Positions 3,747 through 42,922 of a stretch of 64,000 nt of DNA are shown here, piece by piece. The DNA comes from a virus (taxonomy: Duplodnaviria; Heunggongvirae; Uroviricota; Caudoviricetes), in the IMG/VR virus record IMGVR_UViG_3300022178_000016, one strand, 5' to 3'. The notes under the pieces are model-generated. The model was not told where the DNA came from. It made no database searches and worked only from the letters and a program-made list of their open reading frames with translations. Each line of letters begins with the position of its first letter. Position 1 is the stretch's first letter. The translations under genes and the position numbers were made by a program.

Positions 3747-4196
3747 ATGAGTAGTACGGGAATACTAGGTGCTTTGGATTATACAGACAAAACAACTCTC
3801 TGTTGTGATTTAGAAGATTTAGTCCCATTGCTACAAGAGGAATTAGATGAGTTTCAAGAGGCTGTTAATCAAAGGGATGTAGTAGAGACAGTTGATGCTG
3901 TAGTGGATTTAATGTACTTCCTACAACAAGCAGTAATTAAACTTGAACTTGCTGGAGTTAATATAGTTGAATGTTGTAATGAAGTGTGTTTAAATAACCA
4001 ACTCAAATATACAACAAGTTATGAGTTAGCTGAGGGTTGGTTAGATGGGACTCCTAATCGTTATGTAGATGAGAATGTGGCAGAAGATGGTGTTACTTAT
4101 TATTGTGTTAAAGATTTAGATACTCATAAGGTGAAGAAGTATAATAACTTCCCAAGTCCAGATCTAAAACAACACATTCCAGAATATTTGTATTGA
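3747..4196 (+). CDS. MazG-like all-alpha NTP pyrophosphohydrolase (candidate)
   Basis: EELDEFQEA followed by ETVDAVVDLMYF matches the MazG/HisE-type metal-binding helices. The in-frame ATG at 3747 is the preferred start; the longer ORF begins at 3624. Confidence 0.45.
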   Translation: MSSTGILGALDYTDKTTLCCDLEDLVPLLQEELDEFQEAVNQRDVVETVDAVVDLMYFLQQAVIKLELAGVNIVECCNEVCLNNQLKYTTSYELAEGWLDGTPNRYVDENVAEDGVTYYCVKDLDTHKVKKYNNFPSPDLKQHIPEYLY

Positions 4197-26300: not shown

Positions 26301-26994
26301 AGTAACCTTTCAATCTGGCTTGGGTACTTATGTCAATAACGTCAGATTCCTTACTCTCAGAGAAGGGCACAAATTTCTTACCACCCTTCTTAGTAGAGGC
26401 CGAGTTAATTGCTGTATCCCCAGATTGTTTACTATTGGTTGTTGGATTACTCGGAGAAACAAAAACTGTAGTTGTCTCACTTTTAGCAGTTCTTATCTGT
26501 TCAAAGTTAAGGTCAATAAATAAACTAACACCATCACCAGAGCGTCTAGGGAAACCTACACTTGTCATTATTAAATCTGTGTAAGTGTCTACAGGAGTTA
26601 TTAAGCTAACTTCTTTCTTCTGTTTCCGTACATCCAATAACTCTTTGTAAAACTCATCCTGAGTCATTAGTCCCTTCTCACTATTCATAGTGTGAGAATA
26701 ATCACTCACCATTGCAGTGATAGAGAATGTAGCATTGCCATTAATAACGTGGTCTGATTTATTGGCACCATCTTCAACAGGGAATGAAGTTACAGTGGAA
26801 GGGAACACAGGATTAATGTCAGTGGTTGTATCAAACACCAGCACCTTTCCTGTAGAAGTTATGACTCTTGTGCGTTTGGGTTTATGGGCAGGCTGAGACA
26901 TATAAACTTCGTCCCTTTTAGCCTGCTGTTGGTAGCCAAGGATTCTTGCACCGATGGCACCACCATTTTTTAATATTAAATCTAATAGTGCCAT
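26269..26994 (-). CDS. tail protein (241 aa)
   Basis: ORF immediately downstream of the tape measure gene. Confidence 0.4.
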   Translation of the reverse strand: MALLDLILKNGGAIGARILGYQQQAKRDEVYMSQPAHKPKRTRVITSTGKVLVFDTTTDINPVFPSTVTSFPVEDGANKSDHVINGNATFSITAMVSDYSHTMNSEKGLMTQDEFYKELLDVRKQKKEVSLITPVDTYTDLIMTSVGFPRRSGDGVSLFIDLNFEQIRTAKSETTTVFVSPSNPTTNSKQSGDTAINSASTKKGGKKFVPFSESKESDVIDISTQARLKGYFVEAKKFDNL

Positions 26995-28105
26995 TATTTA
27001 TCCCTTATATAGTTAGGAAGTGATTGAGCCACTATCCTAGCAATTTCACCACCCTCTCTTGTTGGAGCGTTTACGGTGATATGATTTACCTGAGATGATT
27101 GTGAAGGTTGTGAAGACTTCTCTGGGAAGTATATACCTTGTCCCATGGTAGGCTGCACGGTAGAAGGTGGTGCCGCTGAATTCATCCTATCTCTTGCTGC
27201 GCTGACTTCATCCATCCCATGCTTGAAGGCTGTTATTGGTGAGAAGGATGATGAGAAGGCTTTCCATAAAACCTTACCTGTATCAGAGTTCTCTGCCAGT
27301 AACTCACCTTGCAACGCCTCACTACGGTTTGTAGCCTGTAGTCTTGAAGCTTTGGCGGACTCTACAAGTGCTTGATTACCTGTAATGTTACCGTAGAGTT
27401 CTATGGCACCTGAAGTCAGTAACTCCCTAGTGTACTTAGCAGCATCTGCTAAAAGTAAAACAAACTTAGCAAACCCACTATACCACTTGTCATCTTTAGC
27501 CCAGTCTTTAAAGAAGCTATTCTTACCATTAACTGCATCATTGAGATCAAGGAAAGCGACCACAGCAGCAGCTACTAACAAAGGTACTAAGAAGAGTCTT
27601 GCTAGAACTCCTGTAATTGATTTACCTAATACTTGCAGGGCTGTTGCGAAGGCGTATACCTTAGACACTATTAAGAGGGATAAAAGCTCCTTCCAATAAG
27701 GTAGAAGTATTTGGATAGCTGTTTTTATTGTCAACCAAGTTTGACCAATAACATTACCAAGAGTTTTGAAACCTTCTTTATTTAACCTTACCCACTTAGC
27801 TAAGTCTTCAAGAACATCAGTCATCTCCCCAAAGGTTTTAACCATTAAGTTGAGGATACCTGCATCGTTAGTTGCTTCCAACATACGAACCCAAGCAGTT
27901 CTCATTTTCTCAAATTTCTTGGCTGGGGTATTAGCCATTTTATTTACTAATTCTGGATCTACAATACTCGCCATGTGATCAATGACTTTCTGTAATTCCT
28001 TTAGCCCAATCTCCCCATCCTCCATTAATTTAAAGAGTTTGGTAGTGTCACCGCCTGTTAAAGCATCGGCGAACATTTTTACTGCACCAGGGAGGTTTTC
28101 TGCTA
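26994..28105 (-). CDS. tail tape measure protein, exon 2 (C-terminal half)
   Basis: The ORF has an in-frame stop just upstream of its TTG. It carries hydrophobic mid-region segments typical of a tape measure protein. Junction with exon 1 is inferred from P1/P10 pairing. Confidence 0.55.
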
Positions 28106-29156
28106 CAAATATCTTCAATAGTGGTCGTTAATCACTACCAGTTCTCTTATGAACTTCTCTATGTCTCCATAGAAGTTGAGACTATATCTTCTCTAGTTTA
28201 CTAGAGCCTACTGTTTCGAGTCACTTGACCCTACATGCTTACACTCATCAGCATTAGTCGTTGAGTAATACACTACCAAATGAAATTAGAAGACACATCT
28301 TTGAAAGTTCTTCTTCTTTTAATATCCCTAACTATATCCTCAGTTAATCTAGCATTCGTAGATAGCGAGAGAATATTTTTTACACTGTGACCGGAAGACA
28401 ACATATCACACACCCAATGTGCCGTGGACTTTGAGATGTTGCTACTTTTATGATTCTTAGGTATTTCTGGGAGGTCTTTCAAAATATAACCCCAGTTTTT
28501 CTTACTCTTTATATTTTTTATAGTCGCGTTAGTTACGTTGAACTCTCTCGCCAAATCAACTACAAGATAGCCGTCAAGAAGTTTCTGGTGGATAAGTAAT
28601 ACTTGACTTTCGCTCAAGAGACACCTACCGTTGCTACCTCCAACATTTGTATTAAGTCCTGTGGAAAACGCATGTTTTTGGTTTTCTTCTCTCGTAACCC
28701 ACTCCAAATTACCTTTATGGTTGTGAAGCTTATTCCCGTCCTTGTGGTTAACCTCTGGTAGATTATGGGGGTTATCTATATAACAAATTGCCACCAATCT
28801 GTGGACAAGATATTTTCTAGGGGTTCCTGTGTTGGTAACTAATTTAATACGTCTATATGTAGAACTGTCGACATGGGATTTCAATAATTTTAGTTTACCA
28901 CTCTTATCAGAGTAGACATCACCATCTTCTGTTACATAATAACTGTTTGCAAACGGAATATTTTTCATTTAAAACTCCTTACTGTATTCTGGAGATATTG
29001 TAGTGTGTTCACTGCGGATCATCTCTATTGTTGACGTTTTTACTATACCCAAGACATTATTCTTGGTGCATATATGTTATCACTAACATAAAGCAGTAGT
29101 CAACACCTAACAAGATTTTCCCGCAATTAAATAGGTTTAACGTCAGCTAACATTTT
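28106..29156 (-). mobile_element. group I intron (IA-like) carrying an HNH homing endonuclease gene in P6
   Basis: On the minus strand: 5' splice-site U.G pair GGTCAGU/GCUGAC; P element AATTGCGGGAAA (29117-29128); Q GATCCGCAGT (29011-29020); R CAACGACTAATG (28252-28263); S AAGATATAGTCTC (28178-28190); a P9 hairpin with a GAGA loop; an omega G candidate at 28106. Confidence 0.75.
28273..28968 (-). CDS. HNH homing endonuclease (NUMOD4 + HNH_3, I-HmuI-like)
   Basis: N-terminal NUMOD4-like SYYVTEDGDVYSDKSG. HNH core HRLVAICYIDNPHNLPEVNHKDGNKLHNHKGNLEWVTREEN. Own RBS AAGGAG. Confidence 0.75.
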   Translation of the reverse strand: MKNIPFANSYYVTEDGDVYSDKSGKLKLLKSHVDSSTYRRIKLVTNTGTPRKYLVHRLVAICYIDNPHNLPEVNHKDGNKLHNHKGNLEWVTREENQKHAFSTGLNTNVGGSNGRCLLSESQVLLIHQKLLDGYLVVDLAREFNVTNATIKNIKSKKNWGYILKDLPEIPKNHKSSNISKSTAHWVCDMLSSGHSVKNILSLSTNARLTEDIVRDIKRRRTFKDVSSNFIW

Positions 29157-30258
29157 ACTGACCTTTTAATTCTTCTGCCATAACCTGAGACTTACTAGCC
29201 ATTTGACTAAAAGCGCGTAATCCGCGATTCTGTTGATCTACAGAAGTCCCAAGCATTGTTGATAACTCAGCAAACGATGTAAACAGTTTCTGAGTTTGTC
29301 CTATACCAAGTGCATCACCACCTGCGGCTAACAGATTCTTATATTGTTCATTGGCTTGTCCAAGGTTTAACGATAATCTATCAACCTCTTTATCAATGAA
29401 CTGAATTTGTTCTTTAGCTTTTTCTTTACTTCCTGTTAAGAATTCAAACTGAGGTTCCCTTGCAGTGGAGAACTGTGCTGTTCTGAAACTCTGTTGTGCA
29501 AAAGCTCCAGCAGCTAAACCCCCAACGGCGCCTCTTGCTGTCATTCCTCCGACAGCTCCAGTAGTCATTGAATCTAAGCTCCTTCTAGCACCACGTTGTT
29601 GAAGTGCTGTCCGTCTACTAGCTTCTTTAGTCCTACGTTGCTCTAGCTTGATATTCTCTCTTAGGGCTTGTTGGTGGAGCTTGTCATAAGCTTGTTCTTG
29701 CTTACGGTAGTAAGTGTTCATAGCAGCTAATTCTTTAGCACTACCAATCTCACCTCTTACAGCTTGTTGCCGTTTAGCTTGTATATTTCTAAGTGCCTTA
29801 ACAGACTCTGAATTTCTAAACTTCTCAGCCATTGCAGAAGCTTTCATTTTAGCTTGGGATAATTTGGCATTGTGCCTTATGGCGTCAGCATGAGCTTTCC
29901 TGAGAGCTAATTCCCGCTTTATTGACTGCATGTGCTCAGAAGCTTTAGCTTTTTCTGCAAACTGTCTAGCCTTTTCCCCTAAAGCAATACCTTTCTTTTT
30001 GTAAGTATCTTCTTTATTAAGGAAAGCTGCTTGTTTAAGCATTGCAGCTTCTTCTTGTTTTCTATACTGAGCTTTCTGTTCCTCAAATCTCAGGTTCTGT
30101 CGCATACTTCTAGCTTGTTTAGCTACTGTACTACTTTGAACACTCTTAGAGATTCCAGCAACATCTTTCTTAACCTTCTTAACTGCCCTATCAAATTCTG
30201 AAGTGTCAACTTTAAAACCGACTGTGGCAAAAAACTTAGCTAATTGGTTTCCAGACAT
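29157..30258 (-). CDS. tail tape measure protein, exon 1 (N-terminal coiled-coil half)
   Basis: The ORF track reads through to a stop at 29155 inside the intron. The exon is Lys/Ala/Gln-rich coiled coil. An AGGTGGGA RBS lies upstream. Confidence 0.55.
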
Positions 30259-30275: not shown

Positions 30276-30865
30276 TTACTCTGTTGGTTTGTTTGCCTCT
30301 TCTGTGTAGGCATCCTCTATATCTTGCATTTCATGGTAAGTAACAAGGTCATCTAAAGTCCAATGTTCTTTTACTTCCCAAAGTCTTGCTTTCTCTCTCA
30401 TAACAGGTCTCCACAGAAAGGAGTCCCACATGTCTAAAGTTGATTCTTTTTGTATCTGTAATCCAACCCTAGTTGGTGCGGTATCCGTTATACGTTTACG
30501 ATACCGCTGTTTTGAAAAAAACTTCCGAAGTTCTCTTTTACTACAAAGGTAACTACTTTTATTAACACATCATAACGAGCAGCAAACTCTGTATCAAAGT
30601 TAATTGCTTTACCATCTTTCATTACACCAGAACAAAGTTTCTTGACTAGATCAACTACGTCATCTTTGTCCAAGTTCTCTACCAGTAAATCAATAGCACG
30701 ACCCATTCCAACTTCACCATCTTCTTGTGATACTAACACACTAAAAGATTGACCAAATACTTTGAAGAGACGTTTCAGATAACCTACACCAGTAGTCCCC
30801 ATAAAAGGATTACATGACCAAGTTTCACCATCAATTTCTGTAGTACGAGTTTCTAAATTATTCAT
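30276..30865 (-). CDS. tail assembly chaperone GT (-1 programmed frameshift product)
   Basis: Zero-frame AGT-TTT-TTT-CAA at 30515-30521. The -1 frame stays open for about 80 codons to a TAA at 30276-30278, just upstream of the tape measure start. Confidence 0.45.
30488..30865 (-). CDS. tail assembly chaperone G
   Basis: 125 aa, between the tube and tape measure genes. A T7 slippery run lies near its 3' end. Confidence 0.5.
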   Translation of the reverse strand: MNNLETRTTEIDGETWSCNPFMGTTGVGYLKRLFKVFGQSFSVLVSQEDGEVGMGRAIDLLVENLDKDDVVDLVKKLCSGVMKDGKAINFDTEFAARYDVLIKVVTFVVKENFGSFFQNSGIVNV

Positions 30866-39553: not shown

Positions 39554-40535
39554 ACTTGCTCCTATTGAGCTATTTGAATTAATGGATTAGAGTTGGTAAC
39601 TCTACCTGCGGAAACTCCGGCTACGAACCCACTGCTTATTTTTATTTTGGAGATTAGGTAGTTGAAACAATCGGAACAACAATCACACATCATTTATATT
39701 AAACAGAGGTCGTTACCCTCTGCCCAACTTATACTTAGTTTGACGATTAACACCACCAGCACTTTTATTCTCGAAATCAGTGACAAACATGCAAGCTTCT
39801 CGACTATAAACGTTGTTATCAGGAAACTTAAAATCTTTATCTAAATTGTACTTATCTTTACCACTGATTTGACCTTTAATCCAAAGGTCGAAATTTTCAA
39901 GTTTAGGTAGGTCGCTAAGGAAATCAGCGAAACAGTGCCATCTTACATCCACTGTCGTACCTTTCCACGCATACCCTCTAGGATCTTTCTGAGAGTAGCA
40001 GCGTTTAAACATATTAGACCACAGCTGCAAAGCTTGTTTATAGTAGGAAGGTTTATTGGGTATTTCTCCAAGAAAGCCTATGCCATGTTTATTCTTAGCA
40101 TAGAAATCTTTAACCTTCCCTGCACGTACATTATCTATATTAGCTTTACGTGTATAACCAGTATCATCGAACTGCACTATGGAAGTTTTACCTTTGACTG
40201 CAATAATCTTCCCAGAATGCCCACTGTTATTAGTGAATAACTCTGTTGAAGTTTTCCAACTGTCATCTATTTGTTTAATTAAATCGTCACACATTAAGAG
40301 ATTCCTCTAAGTTTTAAGTTGCTGCATATTGCTATGCAGATTAGACTATATCACGCTTCCTAAGAAGCCTTACTTTTTCGACTGCACTTGCAGCCTACTC
40401 TACTCCCTTCCACCTCAAGGTGTGGTTTCGATAGTCGTTACACGTTCTCATTTCTGAGCTTCGCTCGGTATTGCCCTTTACATTTGTAGAGGGTGTCCAC
40501 CGAATTTAATAAGTTTATTGACGACCTGTATTTTA
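39554..40535 (-). mobile_element. group I intron (IA-like) at 3' end of large terminase gene, with ORF in P9 extension; 3' boundary not resolved
   Basis: On the minus strand: P1 GACGAU/GUCGUC with a terminal U.G pair; a P-like AAATTCGGTGGAC (40495-40507); a Q-like AATACCGAGCG (40462-40472); a GAAA-loop hairpin; R TAACGACTATCG (40429-40440); S GATATAGTCTAA (40341-40352); P9 CTGCATA-GCAA-TATGCAG (40322-40339). Confidence 0.6.
39713..40294 (-). CDS. intron-encoded ORF, candidate homing endonuclease of unrecognised family (193 aa)
   Basis: GAGGAA RBS immediately after the intron P9 hairpin. No GIY-YIG, HNH or LAGLIDADG motif recognised. Confidence 0.5.
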   Translation of the reverse strand: MCDDLIKQIDDSWKTSTELFTNNSGHSGKIIAVKGKTSIVQFDDTGYTRKANIDNVRAGKVKDFYAKNKHGIGFLGEIPNKPSYYKQALQLWSNMFKRCYSQKDPRGYAWKGTTVDVRWHCFADFLSDLPKLENFDLWIKGQISGKDKYNLDKDFKFPDNNVYSREACMFVTDFENKSAGGVNRQTKYKLGRG

Positions 40536-41936
40536 ATCGTCATGCCCTTTACGGCCACCATCAAAAGCTTCTAACTCTTTGTAGAAGAATGTATTATCTC
40601 CGTACACTTTATCCCATAAATCAGTTGCACAACCTTTTACAACAGAAACATAACCGTTATAAGATGCAGCAGCAAACAATCTAAACCTGTCTAGCTTATT
40701 AGCAAGAGCTTTCTTAGGATAACATCTGAACCCTGCTTTAATGACCTTATTGACAAGTTCCCTACAAGCACCCTTAGAGGCTGCGTTAGGATCTTCTGGC
40801 AGTATTATATCTACCCTACTACCATCTTTAATTGCTTGATCGACAATGAACTGTTCCCATTCACCAAATTTCAAATGGGTTCGGACTACATCAAGTATTA
40901 CATACTCCCCAGATTTCTTTTTCCTACCCATCTTAACTGAGGCGAAATAGTCACACCTTCCTGCATTCGCTGCGTTAGGTATTTCCCCCGCAAAGTCATA
41001 AGCTCTCACTACTTTGTCAAAATCTGACATTGGGGGAGGTGCTAGGATTTCTTCACAGTAACTTCGTTCCCAATAACTAGAATTCATTGGTCTGGCAAAC
41101 CAATTCCCAAATAAAAGTCGCTCTTTTTCCACATGGGGGAGCATTTCGAGGTTTGATTTATAGCTTGGGTTGCTTTTCTTAAGAGATGGATTGTCGTCAA
41201 TAGTGCCAAACAACCCTTGAAAGGATATTGGTTTTATTTGGTCTGGGTGGTCGTGAGGTAATTCTGGGTTTGCATATTTATCTAGTAGTTCTTCTGCTGT
41301 GTCCCCCCAAACAACCTCACCATTAATCCTCAGAAGATAACGGATGACCCCGTTTCTTTCTGGATTAGGTCTTCCCGCTAACTCATGGCCTTCTGGGTAC
41401 AGGTACCACATTGCATATTTAAGTACCCAACTTGTTACGTCAGGGTTGCAAGAGAGCCATAAACTGTGTACATTATTTGCAGTAGATCTTAGCCGTGACC
41501 AAAGCCACCAAATATGATCTTCTTCACTGTGAGTAACTTCATCATAAAAACAATTTGAAATTTGTATTCCTTGATATAATTGGGCGGCGTTACTGTTCTC
41601 GTAGTGAGAAAAACTAACCTCAGCACCGGAAGAAAATACAATCTTCTGATCTTTCATTTTAACTTTTATTTTAGGATCATATATTCTATATAGGGCAACT
41701 GCTTCCCAAAACAAACCACCAGACTTCATAATCGCGGTAGAGTTTTTTCGGATACAGTACCCTCTGTAATTAGGATCATGAGCAAAACGTAAATGCCTCA
41801 TTAACCCAACATAACTCTTAGAACTTCCAGCTGCGCCGCCCACAAGCATTATCTGGGCATCGGACTTTAAGTATTTTTTCTGGAAGGGAGATTTAGGTGA
41901 TATTAAAGCACCCTTCTCTTCTTTCTCTGTACTCAT
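40533..41936 (-). CDS. terL: terminase large subunit (467 aa)
   Basis: Walker A LVGGAAGSSKS and Walker B CFYDEV. Nuclease-domain acidic residues in the C-terminal half. The stop codon lies inside the putative intron. Confidence 0.75.
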   Translation of the reverse strand: MSTEKEEKGALISPKSPFQKKYLKSDAQIMLVGGAAGSSKSYVGLMRHLRFAHDPNYRGYCIRKNSTAIMKSGGLFWEAVALYRIYDPKIKVKMKDQKIVFSSGAEVSFSHYENSNAAQLYQGIQISNCFYDEVTHSEEDHIWWLWSRLRSTANNVHSLWLSCNPDVTSWVLKYAMWYLYPEGHELAGRPNPERNGVIRYLLRINGEVVWGDTAEELLDKYANPELPHDHPDQIKPISFQGLFGTIDDNPSLKKSNPSYKSNLEMLPHVEKERLLFGNWFARPMNSSYWERSYCEEILAPPPMSDFDKVVRAYDFAGEIPNAANAGRCDYFASVKMGRKKKSGEYVILDVVRTHLKFGEWEQFIVDQAIKDGSRVDIILPEDPNAASKGACRELVNKVIKAGFRCYPKKALANKLDRFRLFAAASYNGYVSVVKGCATDLWDKVYGDNTFFYKELEAFDGGRKGHDD

Positions 41937-42059: not shown

Positions 42060-42674
42060 TTATTCGTCTTCGTACTCATCTTCTTCTATTTCCATAGAGA
42101 AGGCAGGTCTCACATGCTCACCCTTCGCAGCAGCCTCTTTAGCTGCTTGCACAGGATCGTTCTTAGCAACAGCTCCAATCTCTTCAGCTTTCTTCTGACT
42201 AACCGCCAAGGCTATCTTACGTTGCTTACTTTCTTCAATAGCTTTCTTCAAAGCAATATCTTGACTAACAACCCATTTAGCAATCTCCACACGAGTTTTA
42301 GAAACAGGTACATATCTAATCAATACTTCAACCAGAAGTTGTTCTGAGATAACCTTACCATTAGAATCTAACTTCTCAGGTTCTACTTCCACTATCTCAA
42401 ACTTAGCTGATTTACTCTTATGTAATATCCCTTGCTTCTCTTCTGGGGTTCCTTCCCACACTTCCATCTCTGGAACCAAACCACCAATCAAAGCTTTCTT
42501 AATAATCTCTGAGGCTGGTTCTGTGAGGTCTGCAATCTTCCTAGCTACTGTTCCCATACCTTTAGACATACGAGGGACACCAGCACCAGTGTTCTTATTA
42601 GGGCTTGCATTATGTTCTGCTAGAGCCTTCTGTTGCTTCTCAGCTTGGGCTTTAGTTAATCTTGGCGATGGCAT
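42060..42674 (-). CDS. terminase small subunit candidate (204 aa)
   Basis: Directly upstream of terL. A basic N-terminus and an acidic C-terminal tail (EIEEDEYEDE). Confidence 0.4.
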   Translation of the reverse strand: MPSPRLTKAQAEKQQKALAEHNASPNKNTGAGVPRMSKGMGTVARKIADLTEPASEIIKKALIGGLVPEMEVWEGTPEEKQGILHKSKSAKFEIVEVEPEKLDSNGKVISEQLLVEVLIRYVPVSKTRVEIAKWVVSQDIALKKAIEESKQRKIALAVSQKKAEEIGAVAKNDPVQAAKEAAAKGEHVRPAFSMEIEEDEYEDE

Positions 42675-42694: not shown

Positions 42695-42743
42695 AGAAAT
42701 AAATAACCCCTCAAGGTTGCGCATCGTTGATAGGCGTGAGGGG
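42695..42743 (-). terminator. rho-independent terminator downstream of tRNA
   Basis: CCCCUCA...UGAGGGG stem followed by UUAUUUAUUU on the minus strand. Confidence 0.5.
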
Positions 42744-42846: not shown

Positions 42847-42922
42847 TGGCCAGCTACTAAGGAGTCGAACCTCAAACCGCTGGTTTTGGAGACCAGTGCT
42901 CTACCAATTGAGCTAGTAACTG
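42847..42922 (-). tRNA. tRNA-Trp (anticodon CCA)
   Basis: Cloverleaf folded by hand: acceptor CAGUUAC/GUAGCUG, D arm GCUC-AAUUGGUA-GAGC, anticodon loop CUCCAAA, T arm UGAGG-UUCGACU-CCUUA, discriminator G and an encoded CCA. Confidence 0.8.

Follow-up and report, generated by a model that had tools for sequence, protein, structure and literature searches.

A probable group I intron with an HNH homing endonuclease gene inside the tape measure gene of an uncultivated myovirus

Why should the tape measure gene of a tailed phage be read as two open reading frames (ORFs) that are held apart by about a kilobase of DNA encoding a nuclease? The question is raised by the virus record IMGVR_UViG_3300022178_000016 (Caudoviricetes), of which a stretch of 64,000 nucleotides (nt), the window of this study, was analyzed; the positions given below are those of the window unless another sequence is named, and all the features described in it lie on its minus strand. 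We propose that the intervening segment, 28106..29156, is very probably a spliced group I intron of 1,051 nt that carries a homing endonuclease gene (HEG), and that the observations which carry this reading are the anatomy of the intron RNA, the continuity of the flanking exons, homology to certified introns and covariation of the helices. This interpretation was first advanced in a model-made reading of the letters of the window and its translated ORFs (the first-pass annotation), and our analysis supports it: all the elements described there were found at their coordinates on the minus strand, with corrections to a NUMOD4 domain label and to the length of the P1 helix.

The first step of the answer concerns the protein. 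ORF1 (29155-30258; 367 amino acids (aa)) and ORF2 (26994-28118; 374 aa, with a TTG start) had been taken as the parts of a single broken tape measure frame, and the Pfam profile TMP_3 bears this out: the C-terminus of ORF1 is matched by profile positions 6-112, the N-terminus of ORF2 by positions 114-191 (41.9 and 36.2 bits, the gathering score being 41). Likewise, PHROG tape measure profiles abut between the two ORFs at 601/602 and 420/421, and stop exactly at the ORF1 C-terminus. Since the halves of the TMP_3 and PHROG profiles abut across both ORFs, one protein domain has been cut in two. Exon 1 (29157..30258) begins with the ATG at 30258, preceded by a GGTGG Shine-Dalgarno sequence, and exon 2 (26994..28105), supported by the TMP_3 profile positions 114-191 and the junction alignment, ends with the stop codon at 26994-26996. 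Conceptual joining of T29157 to T28105, with removal of 1,051 nt, yields a protein of 737 aa with zero internal stops, in agreement with the forecast of about 737 aa, in which TMP_3 (PF20155) gives one continuous match of 87.1 bits at residues 260-447 (profile positions 6-191 of 192).

At the junction itself, exon 1 ends in ...GAA TTA AAA GGT CAG T, the final T being the first base of a Leu codon, and exon 2 opens with TA GCA GAA AAC..., which after splicing would be read as L-A-E-N-L-P-G. The predicted spliced RNA junction is GGTCAGT|TAGCAGAA (in its longer form, GAATTAAAAGGTCAGTTAGCAGAAAACCTCCC) and the predicted junction-spanning peptide is ...ELKGQLAENLPG..., also written ELKGQLAENLPGAVK. 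An alignment of the joined exons to intron-less tape measure proteins had been suggested as a check, and it came out clearly: in 413 phage records, one unbroken tblastn alignment spans at least 80% of a 226-aa query that crosses the junction, and these records include rV5/phiTE/CR3-like phages and the Vibrio phages helene and eugene. In a multiple alignment, the intron-less proteins read GQVMAEELKGQ-L-(A/S/G)E.(I/M)P and the joined product reads SQVMAEELKGQ-L-AENLPG, gap-free, with the Leu of the split codon (T|TA) being invariant. The apparent stop of ORF1 is a TAA made of T29157 and the intronic A29156-A29155; it and the TTG start of ORF2 are artefacts of reading into the intron.

The second step concerns the RNA. 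As described in the first-pass annotation, the four core elements occur in the correct order: P (AAUUGCGGGAAA, 29128-29117), Q (GAUCCGCAGU, 29020-29011), the ORF, R (CAACGACUAAUG, 28263-28252) and S (AAGAUAUAGUCUC, 28190-28178), each present in a single copy. In the Rfam alignment, R and S match the respective consensus sequences (UCAACGACUA and AAGAUAUAGUC) with a posterior probability near 1. At the 5' splice site, the P1 hairpin (29142..29162) pairs exon GUCAGU (29162-29157) with the guide GCUGAC (29147-29142) at 6/6 positions and places the wobble U29157.G29147 at the splice site; hence, the U.G pair claimed earlier stands, whereas the claimed length of seven base pairs (bp) does not, the helix having 6 bp and the extra G being unpaired. 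At the other end, P10 pairs the P1 loop UGUUA (29152-29148) with UAGCA of exon 2 (28105-28101) at 5/5 positions directly after G28106, precisely where a P10-compatible 3' junction had been placed. Of the G residues nearby, G28106 alone both keeps the reading frame and has the support of P10. G28103 was rejected as an alternative 3' splice site: splicing after it would likewise keep the frame (Q-S-E-N), but it is without P10 support and would remove the invariant Leu-Ala.

Between these ends, the 5' core (29012..29135) comprises the 5' strand of P3 (CCUAUU, 29135-29130), P4 (UUGCGG, 29126-29121, with CCGCAG, 29017-29012), P5 (29116-29113 with 29024-29021) and P5a (GUUGAC, 29104-29099, with GUCAAC, 29035-29030) together with distal hairpins. 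It is followed by the P6/P6a stem region (28265..29011), made of P6 (UGA, 29011-29009, with UUA, 28268-28266) and P6a (ACACUAC, 29006-29000, with GUAGUGU, 28276-28270); the loop of P6a carries the endonuclease gene, the TAG stop of which falls within the 3' strand of that helix. The 3' catalytic core (28158..28263) comprises P7 (GACUA of R, 28259-28255, with UAGUC of S, 28184-28180), P7.1 (AUGCU/AGCAU, 28254-28250 with 28239-28235), P7.2 (GGGUC/GACUC, 28231-28227 with 28222-28218), the 3' strand of P3 (P3', AGUAGG, 28212-28207), P8 (28206-28201 with 28196-28191) and the P9 hairpin UCUAUG-GAGA-CAUAGA (28173-28158; stem 28173-28168 with 28163-28158), the GAGA loop of which had been correctly reported. 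A P9.1 hairpin (GGUAGUG, 28139-28133, with CACUAUU, 28123-28117; loop AUUAACGAC) lies in the 3' part, and the 3' tail, ...GAAGAUAUUUG (within 28106..28139), ends at the terminal G28106. All the drawn helices are fully paired at these coordinates, P2 is absent, and when the ORF-deleted intron is folded by unconstrained minimum free energy, P1, P4, P5, P5a, P6a, P7.2, P8 and P9 reappear. Several features that define a group I intron are seen: a P3-P9 core with ordered P/Q/R/S and the P3/P7 pseudoknot, the U.G wobble, and a 3'-terminal G with P10. The presence of P7.1/P7.2 is the criterion for subgroup IA in the Michel & Westhof classification; both helices are found here between P7 and P3', and we describe the intron as IA-like and devoid of P2.

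These features bear directly on a rival account of the locus, in which the tape measure gene has been broken by a free-standing HNH gene and RNA splicing plays no part, each half being translated on its own and the products assembling non-covalently. Such a gene-in-pieces arrangement has reportedly been found in Aeromonas phage Aeh1, where nrdA is split by mobE. It would account for the three separate genes called at this locus on all the public contigs, for the stop codon of ORF1 and for a possible TTG start of ORF2; yet no Shine-Dalgarno sequence was found upstream of that TTG at 28118, the break lies inside a codon of an invariant motif, the ~355 nt of non-ORF sequence around the HEG make up a group I core that is complete and covaries, both exon ends are matched precisely by the pairings P1 and P10, and the equivalent locus of Vibrio phage ICP1 is spliced (PMC10448857). 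We therefore regard this account as very unlikely. Further, the observation that would have favored it, namely relatives with two independent genes at these positions, did not appear; in KLEP7, PhAER-4, ICP1 M4 and Vibrio phage 1.084.O the pieces all flank group I cores.

The group I reading was also examined with covariance models, as the first-pass annotation had proposed. An Rfam scan of the window at the gathering threshold gave no group I match. With permissive filters, Intron_gpI (RF00028) matched significantly, with 29.7 bits (E=2.4e-5) on a 1.3 kb segment and 31.5 bits (E=3.5e-4) when the window was scanned in full, and it was the only family with a significant E-value on the intron stretch. 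The match covers the 3' core: R/P7, S/P7' and P9 are correctly aligned by the model, and its 5' half is forced into the end of the ORF, since the true 5' core is situated ~720 nt upstream. That proposal thus met with a significant match, albeit one below the cutoff. The ORF-less introns found at the identical site in other phages do exceed it, with 73.2 bits for KLEP7 and 90.5 bits for intron 2 of PhAER-4.

Evidence also comes from covariation. We aligned the ORF-deleted window intron with eight relatives (n=9; seven of the eight above the Rfam cutoff) using MAFFT and projected the structure derived from the window onto the alignment, with P7 written as a pseudoknot. Across the nine introns, 86.7% of the cells expected to pair do so, against 65.0% in shuffles and 34-43% when the partners are slid by 1-3 columns, a figure inflated by the derivation of the structure from one member of the alignment. 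The count of double-sided, compensatory changes in the other sequences is independent of that derivation: they affect 41 of the 53 base pairs, against 22.7 in the shuffles. The covariation score is 0.64 against 0.22, and none of the 500 shuffles matched the observed value on any of the measures. Double changes are seen in 9 of 10 pairs of P6/P6a (helix 5), in 4 of 5 of P7.1 and in all five of P7.2; the changes in P3, P8, P9 and P6a are almost wholly compensatory. The helices that touch the exons track them: P1 is GUCAGU/GCUGAC in the window, GUCAAU/GUUGAC in KLEP7 and GCCAGU/GCUGGC in PhAER-4 intron 2, and P10 is UAGCA/UGUUA in the window and UAGGUG/CAUCUA in KLEP7.

Homology to known introns points the same way. 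By megablast, only a stretch of ~80 nt (28109-28192) finds matches, with 88-92% identity to introns of Staphylococcus Herelleviridae (best E=4e-22), one of which is annotated as intron_gpI and one of which lies inside nrdA. With sensitive blastn, the 5' core matches the phage K-type polA intron with the HNH gene I-KsaIII, and the 3' core matches introns of T3-like phages, of U5 nrdD, of FelixO1-like phages and of others. The closest counterparts by position are unannotated. In Pseudaeromonas phage vB_PpeM_KLEP7 (OM654377), an ORF-less intron of 307 nt (positions 3835-4141 of the extracted locus, L003) interrupts the same codon as in the window and separates the ‘structural protein’ gp15 from the ‘tape measure protein’ gp16. 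In Aeromonas phage PhAER-4 (PQ495741), intron 1 (L010 1455-2551, with an ORF at 1665-2378) and intron 2 (L010 2563-2883) are separated by a mini-exon of 11 nt, UAAAGGCCAGU (= TAAAGGCCAGT; L010 2552-2562); intron 2 occupies the site of the window intron and intron 1 lies 11 nt upstream. A fourth same-site case comes from the IMG/VR contig IMGVR_UViG_2706796514_000001 (L043), where the intron is followed by a mini-exon of 20 nt and a further HEG-bearing intron; it was the one true intron among the 69 loci returned by a scan of IMG/VR for the 3'-junction pattern, the remainder being chance matches. KLEP7 and this contig share the 3' tail and junction of the window, the tail of KLEP7 being likewise GAAGAUAUUUG.

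To elaborate on the comparison, KLEP7 and PhAER-4 intron 2 resemble the window intron in their identical site (…CAR U|UA GNN GAA…), P2-less architecture and P9 hairpin, and their 3' domain is 67-75% identical to its own; they differ in being ORF-less (307 and 321 nt, respectively), KLEP7 has a variant P7 (GAUCA/UGAUC), and PhAER-4, unlike the window, has the second, ORF-containing intron 11 nt upstream. Some side observations concern these relatives. The sequence (A/C)UUAACGAC of the P9.1 loop (28124-28132) is conserved above its covarying stem and recurs in KLEP7 (L003 4115-4123), in L043 (~293-301) and in the Staphylococcus introns (L001/L002/L012); it resembles the R element UCAACGAC and may represent a tertiary contact or relate to an alternative ‘GAAGAUAU’ repeat at the 3' end. 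KLEP7 has a second unannotated group I intron (L003 974-1274; 86.7 bits) in the 530-nt gap between its tail sheath and tube genes. The tape measure exon 1 of PhAER-4 is unannotated, with a tblastn match at L010 1135-1455. In ICP1 M4, 1.084.O and L043, this same motif of the tape measure gene holds several closely packed introns and mini-exons of ~10-20 nt, and the pieces in 1.084.O are annotated as a ‘coil containing protein’, two ‘HNH nuclease’ genes and a ‘TMhelix containing protein’.

The third step concerns the gene in the P6a loop (28273-28968), which encodes an I-HmuI-like protein of 231 aa and has a Shine-Dalgarno sequence of its own (AAGGAG, 28980-28975). Residues 7-109 match I-HmuI (PDB 1U3E) with E=1.8e-13, and the H...N...N residues of the HNH motif align as VNHKDGNK...GNLEWVT..EN with VDHKDGNK...TNLRWVT..IN of I-HmuI; the match to the HNH endonuclease family phrog_59 has E=9e-46. 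Of the HNH/NUMOD4 assignment made earlier, the HNH part is thus upheld by both the I-HmuI and PHROG matches, and the NUMOD4 part is left unsupported. The nearest relatives of the protein, with 40% identity, are encoded by HEGs that ICP1 M4 and Vibrio phage 1.084.O carry in their tape measure introns, and three group I cores are present at each of the two loci. The predicted intron-less target around the insertion site is …GAAGAATTAAAAGGTCAGTTAGCAGAAAACCTC….

How does this locus stand beside characterized systems? The tape measure gene of ICP1 has four exons plus three introns bearing HNH-3 HEGs, and its splicing was shown by RNA sequencing and reverse-transcription PCR in a study whose authors remarked, too, that interruptions of tape measure genes are frequent (Barth, Dunham & Seed 2023, NAR Genom Bioinform, PMC10448857). 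The window resembles it in that a myovirus tape measure is split inside the same TMP_3 motif (QVMA/EEL/KGQLG/E) by a group I intron with an I-HmuI-like HNH endonuclease, the window protein being 40% identical to that of the third intron of ICP1 M4; the middle intron of the latter scores 84.5 bits on RF00028. The two differ in the number of introns, one in the window and three in ICP1, splicing has been verified in ICP1 only, and the two phages share no relationship in their DNA. By our reading, the window site (CAG U|UA) lies 5 nt upstream of the third-intron site (GGU|GAA) of ICP1 M4 and 1.084.O. A further likeness is to the DNA polymerase intron of Bacillus phage SPO1 (I-HmuI, PDB 1U3E) and the Staphylococcus phage K-type polA introns (I-KsaII/III), which also have an HNH ORF between Q and R; unlike the window intron, these sit in a DNA polymerase gene and in phages of Gram-positive hosts. 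Nicking has been shown for I-HmuI, and the window endonuclease would act similarly. Finally, prophages of the Bacillus cereus group have tape measure group I introns at three positions, IVS1-3 (Tourasse & Kolsto 2008, NAR, PMC2504315), and offer a precedent for tape measure genes hosting such introns at several positions; they differ from the window in being siphovirus-type tape measure proteins of >1,200 aa from Firmicutes, and are likened to it by description rather than by sequence.

Several results weigh against our reading of the locus. The RF00028 score of the window, 29.7-31.5 bits, lies under the gathering cutoff of 50; the paired-cell figure is subject to the inflation already described; Pfam HNH_3 scores 21.4 bits on the endonuclease, under its cutoff of 24.8, and NUMOD4 has no Pfam match in it at E<=0.1; an empty-site allele was not found among close relatives, exact-protein look-ups with the endonuclease, the chaperone and the Dit-like protein giving interrupted copies only; and splicing in this phage is argued from analogy. 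On two of these the analysis offers a specific account. The low RF00028 score arises because the P6a loop of ~720 nt with its ORF separates the halves of the core, and the Pfam result weakens the NUMOD4 label only, as the HNH assignment stands on the I-HmuI and PHROG matches.

The low score, the absence of P2 and the reliance on homologs for catalysis could alternatively be taken to mean a decayed intron, one that splices inefficiently, leaves the tape measure gene a pseudogene, or depends on a protein cofactor or another trans-acting factor. This we hold to be improbable in the extreme: all the core helices are intact with R and S fitting the Rfam consensus, the ORF in P6a explains the score, the same-site ORF-less homologs are also P2-less and score 73-90 bits, and the arrangement is fixed in the population across several metagenomes, something that a tail-less, defective phage would not sustain. 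A fortuitous origin of P/Q/R/S-like strings in AT-rich DNA between unrelated genes is scarcely conceivable and was ruled out, for although short motifs can arise by chance and the first-pass annotation gave no statistics, the Rfam E-values (2.4e-5 and 3.5e-4), the BLAST matches to annotated introns (up to E=4e-22), the covarying helices and the single Pfam TMP_3 domain spanning both ORFs speak against it. Readings of the segment as an intein or a group II intron were likewise rejected: the segment has neither an in-frame intein nor the domain V/VI or reverse-transcriptase features of a group II intron.

As for the phage, the gene order around the locus is sheath (phrog_205, E=1e-104), PhiTE-type tube, tail assembly chaperone (phrog_1613), tape measure, Dit-like and baseplate genes, and this is the tail module of a phage with a contractile tail. 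The identification of the tape measure gene accords with both the TMP_3 match above the gathering score and the position after the chaperone in the tail module. A separate observation is a 51-aa ORF (30276-30431) between the chaperone (30488-30865) and the start of the tape measure gene, which may be a frameshift extension of the chaperone (G/GT-type). Exact copies of the window proteins occur on 12-15 near-identical metagenomic contigs from several samples, several of these contigs being ~96.8 kb long, and all have the same interrupted arrangement with each piece called as a separate gene. Since every one of these contigs, drawn from several samples, carries it, the phage is viable with this arrangement. 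In the phage collection, megablast with the tape measure gene plus intron and with the 21.7 kb neighborhood found no DNA-level relative beyond the 80-nt intron core, and the IMG/VR search found no relatives of exon 2.

Hence, we advance the following mechanism. In this uncultivated myovirus of ~97 kb, a mobile group I intron would have entered the tape measure gene at its most conserved motif (QVMAEELKGQ|LAE). By analogy with characterized phage group I introns, the late tail-gene transcript would fold into a P1-P9.1 ribozyme, and an external guanosine would attack after U29157, held by the P1 U.G pair. The freed exon 1, aligned with exon 2 by P10, would then attack after the terminal G28106, and ligation of T29157 to T28105 would restore the TTA Leu codon and give an mRNA for the 737-aa tape measure protein. 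The HNH endonuclease, if it behaves as I-HmuI does, would nick intron-free alleles of the tape measure gene in co-infecting relatives, close to where the intron inserts, and repair of the nicked allele would copy the intron in (homing).

Where might such an intron have come from? The window 5' core is ~71-73% identical to PhAER-4 intron 1 and to the Staphylococcus phage K-type polA (I-KsaIII) intron. Taken as a whole, the 5' domain is 69% identical to PhAER-4 intron 1, against 44-49% to the same-site introns, whereas the 3' domain is closest to the same-site introns of KLEP7 and PhAER-4 (intron 2; 65-75%). The window intron is therefore a mosaic, its 5' domain being closest to an upstream-site intron and its 3' domain to same-site introns, which suggests, from a small number of sequences, recombination between introns at neighboring sites. 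At least five insertion points can be read within ~30 nt of the motif (GCU|, CU|U, A|AA, CAG U|UA and GGU|GAA), spread over ICP1, 1.084.O, PhAER-4, KLEP7, the IMG/VR contig and this phage, with mini-exons down to 11-20 nt. We tentatively suggest, with somewhat less than even confidence, that the ~30 nt encoding the invariant motif QVMAEELKGQLGE are a shared homing hot spot, where group I introns and their HNH genes pass between unrelated aquatic myoviruses and acquire new targets, the window intron being one recombinant. If this were true, introns would reach neighboring sites through domain swaps combined with mutation of the internal guide.

Other elements of the window deserve brief mention. 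The large terminase gene (39562-41936) also appears to be split by a group I intron, the second one seen in the window. The TerL ORF (40533-41936) ends in ...GRKGHDD at a P1-like pairing of GACGAU (40541-40536) with GUCGUC (40525-20); a complete core is seen at 40322-40575 (Rfam 44.7 bits, cutoff 50; E=4e-8), and an HNH-like ORF (39713-40294; phrog_2081, 1.8e-39) lies 3' of P9. The candidate exon 2, of 42 codons, starts at ~39690 (...AAATG|ATGTGTGAT) and ends at 39562, and joining the exons raises the phrog_979 match from 476.7 to 502.9 bits and extends the coverage of the profile from position 587 to position 607 of 642. An abiF RNA motif (42706-42743; Rfam 41.9 bits, gathering 37), unexpected in a phage genome, is found just upstream of a 204-aa ORF (42060-42674). 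It is adjoined by a tRNA-Trp (CCA) gene at 42847-42922, both lying between the terminase region and the genes upstream.

What the finding means can be put in proportion. Its interest is modest because ICP1 and the B. cereus prophages have already established that tape measure genes host group I introns, and it reveals no new mechanism. What it adds is one more, independent lineage to the evidence that group I introns with I-HmuI-type endonucleases insert preferentially in the conserved TMP_3 motif. It also offers an intron that occurs naturally at a single site both with and without its ORF, which would aid the study of intron and HEG turnover. There is also a consequence for annotation: in this phage, in KLEP7, PhAER-4 and 1.084.O, and on all the metagenomic contigs, annotation or gene calling breaks the tape measure gene up into two or three unrelated genes. 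Recognition of the intron restores a protein of 737 aa, which matters for the prediction of tail length, for protein clustering and for phage taxonomy.

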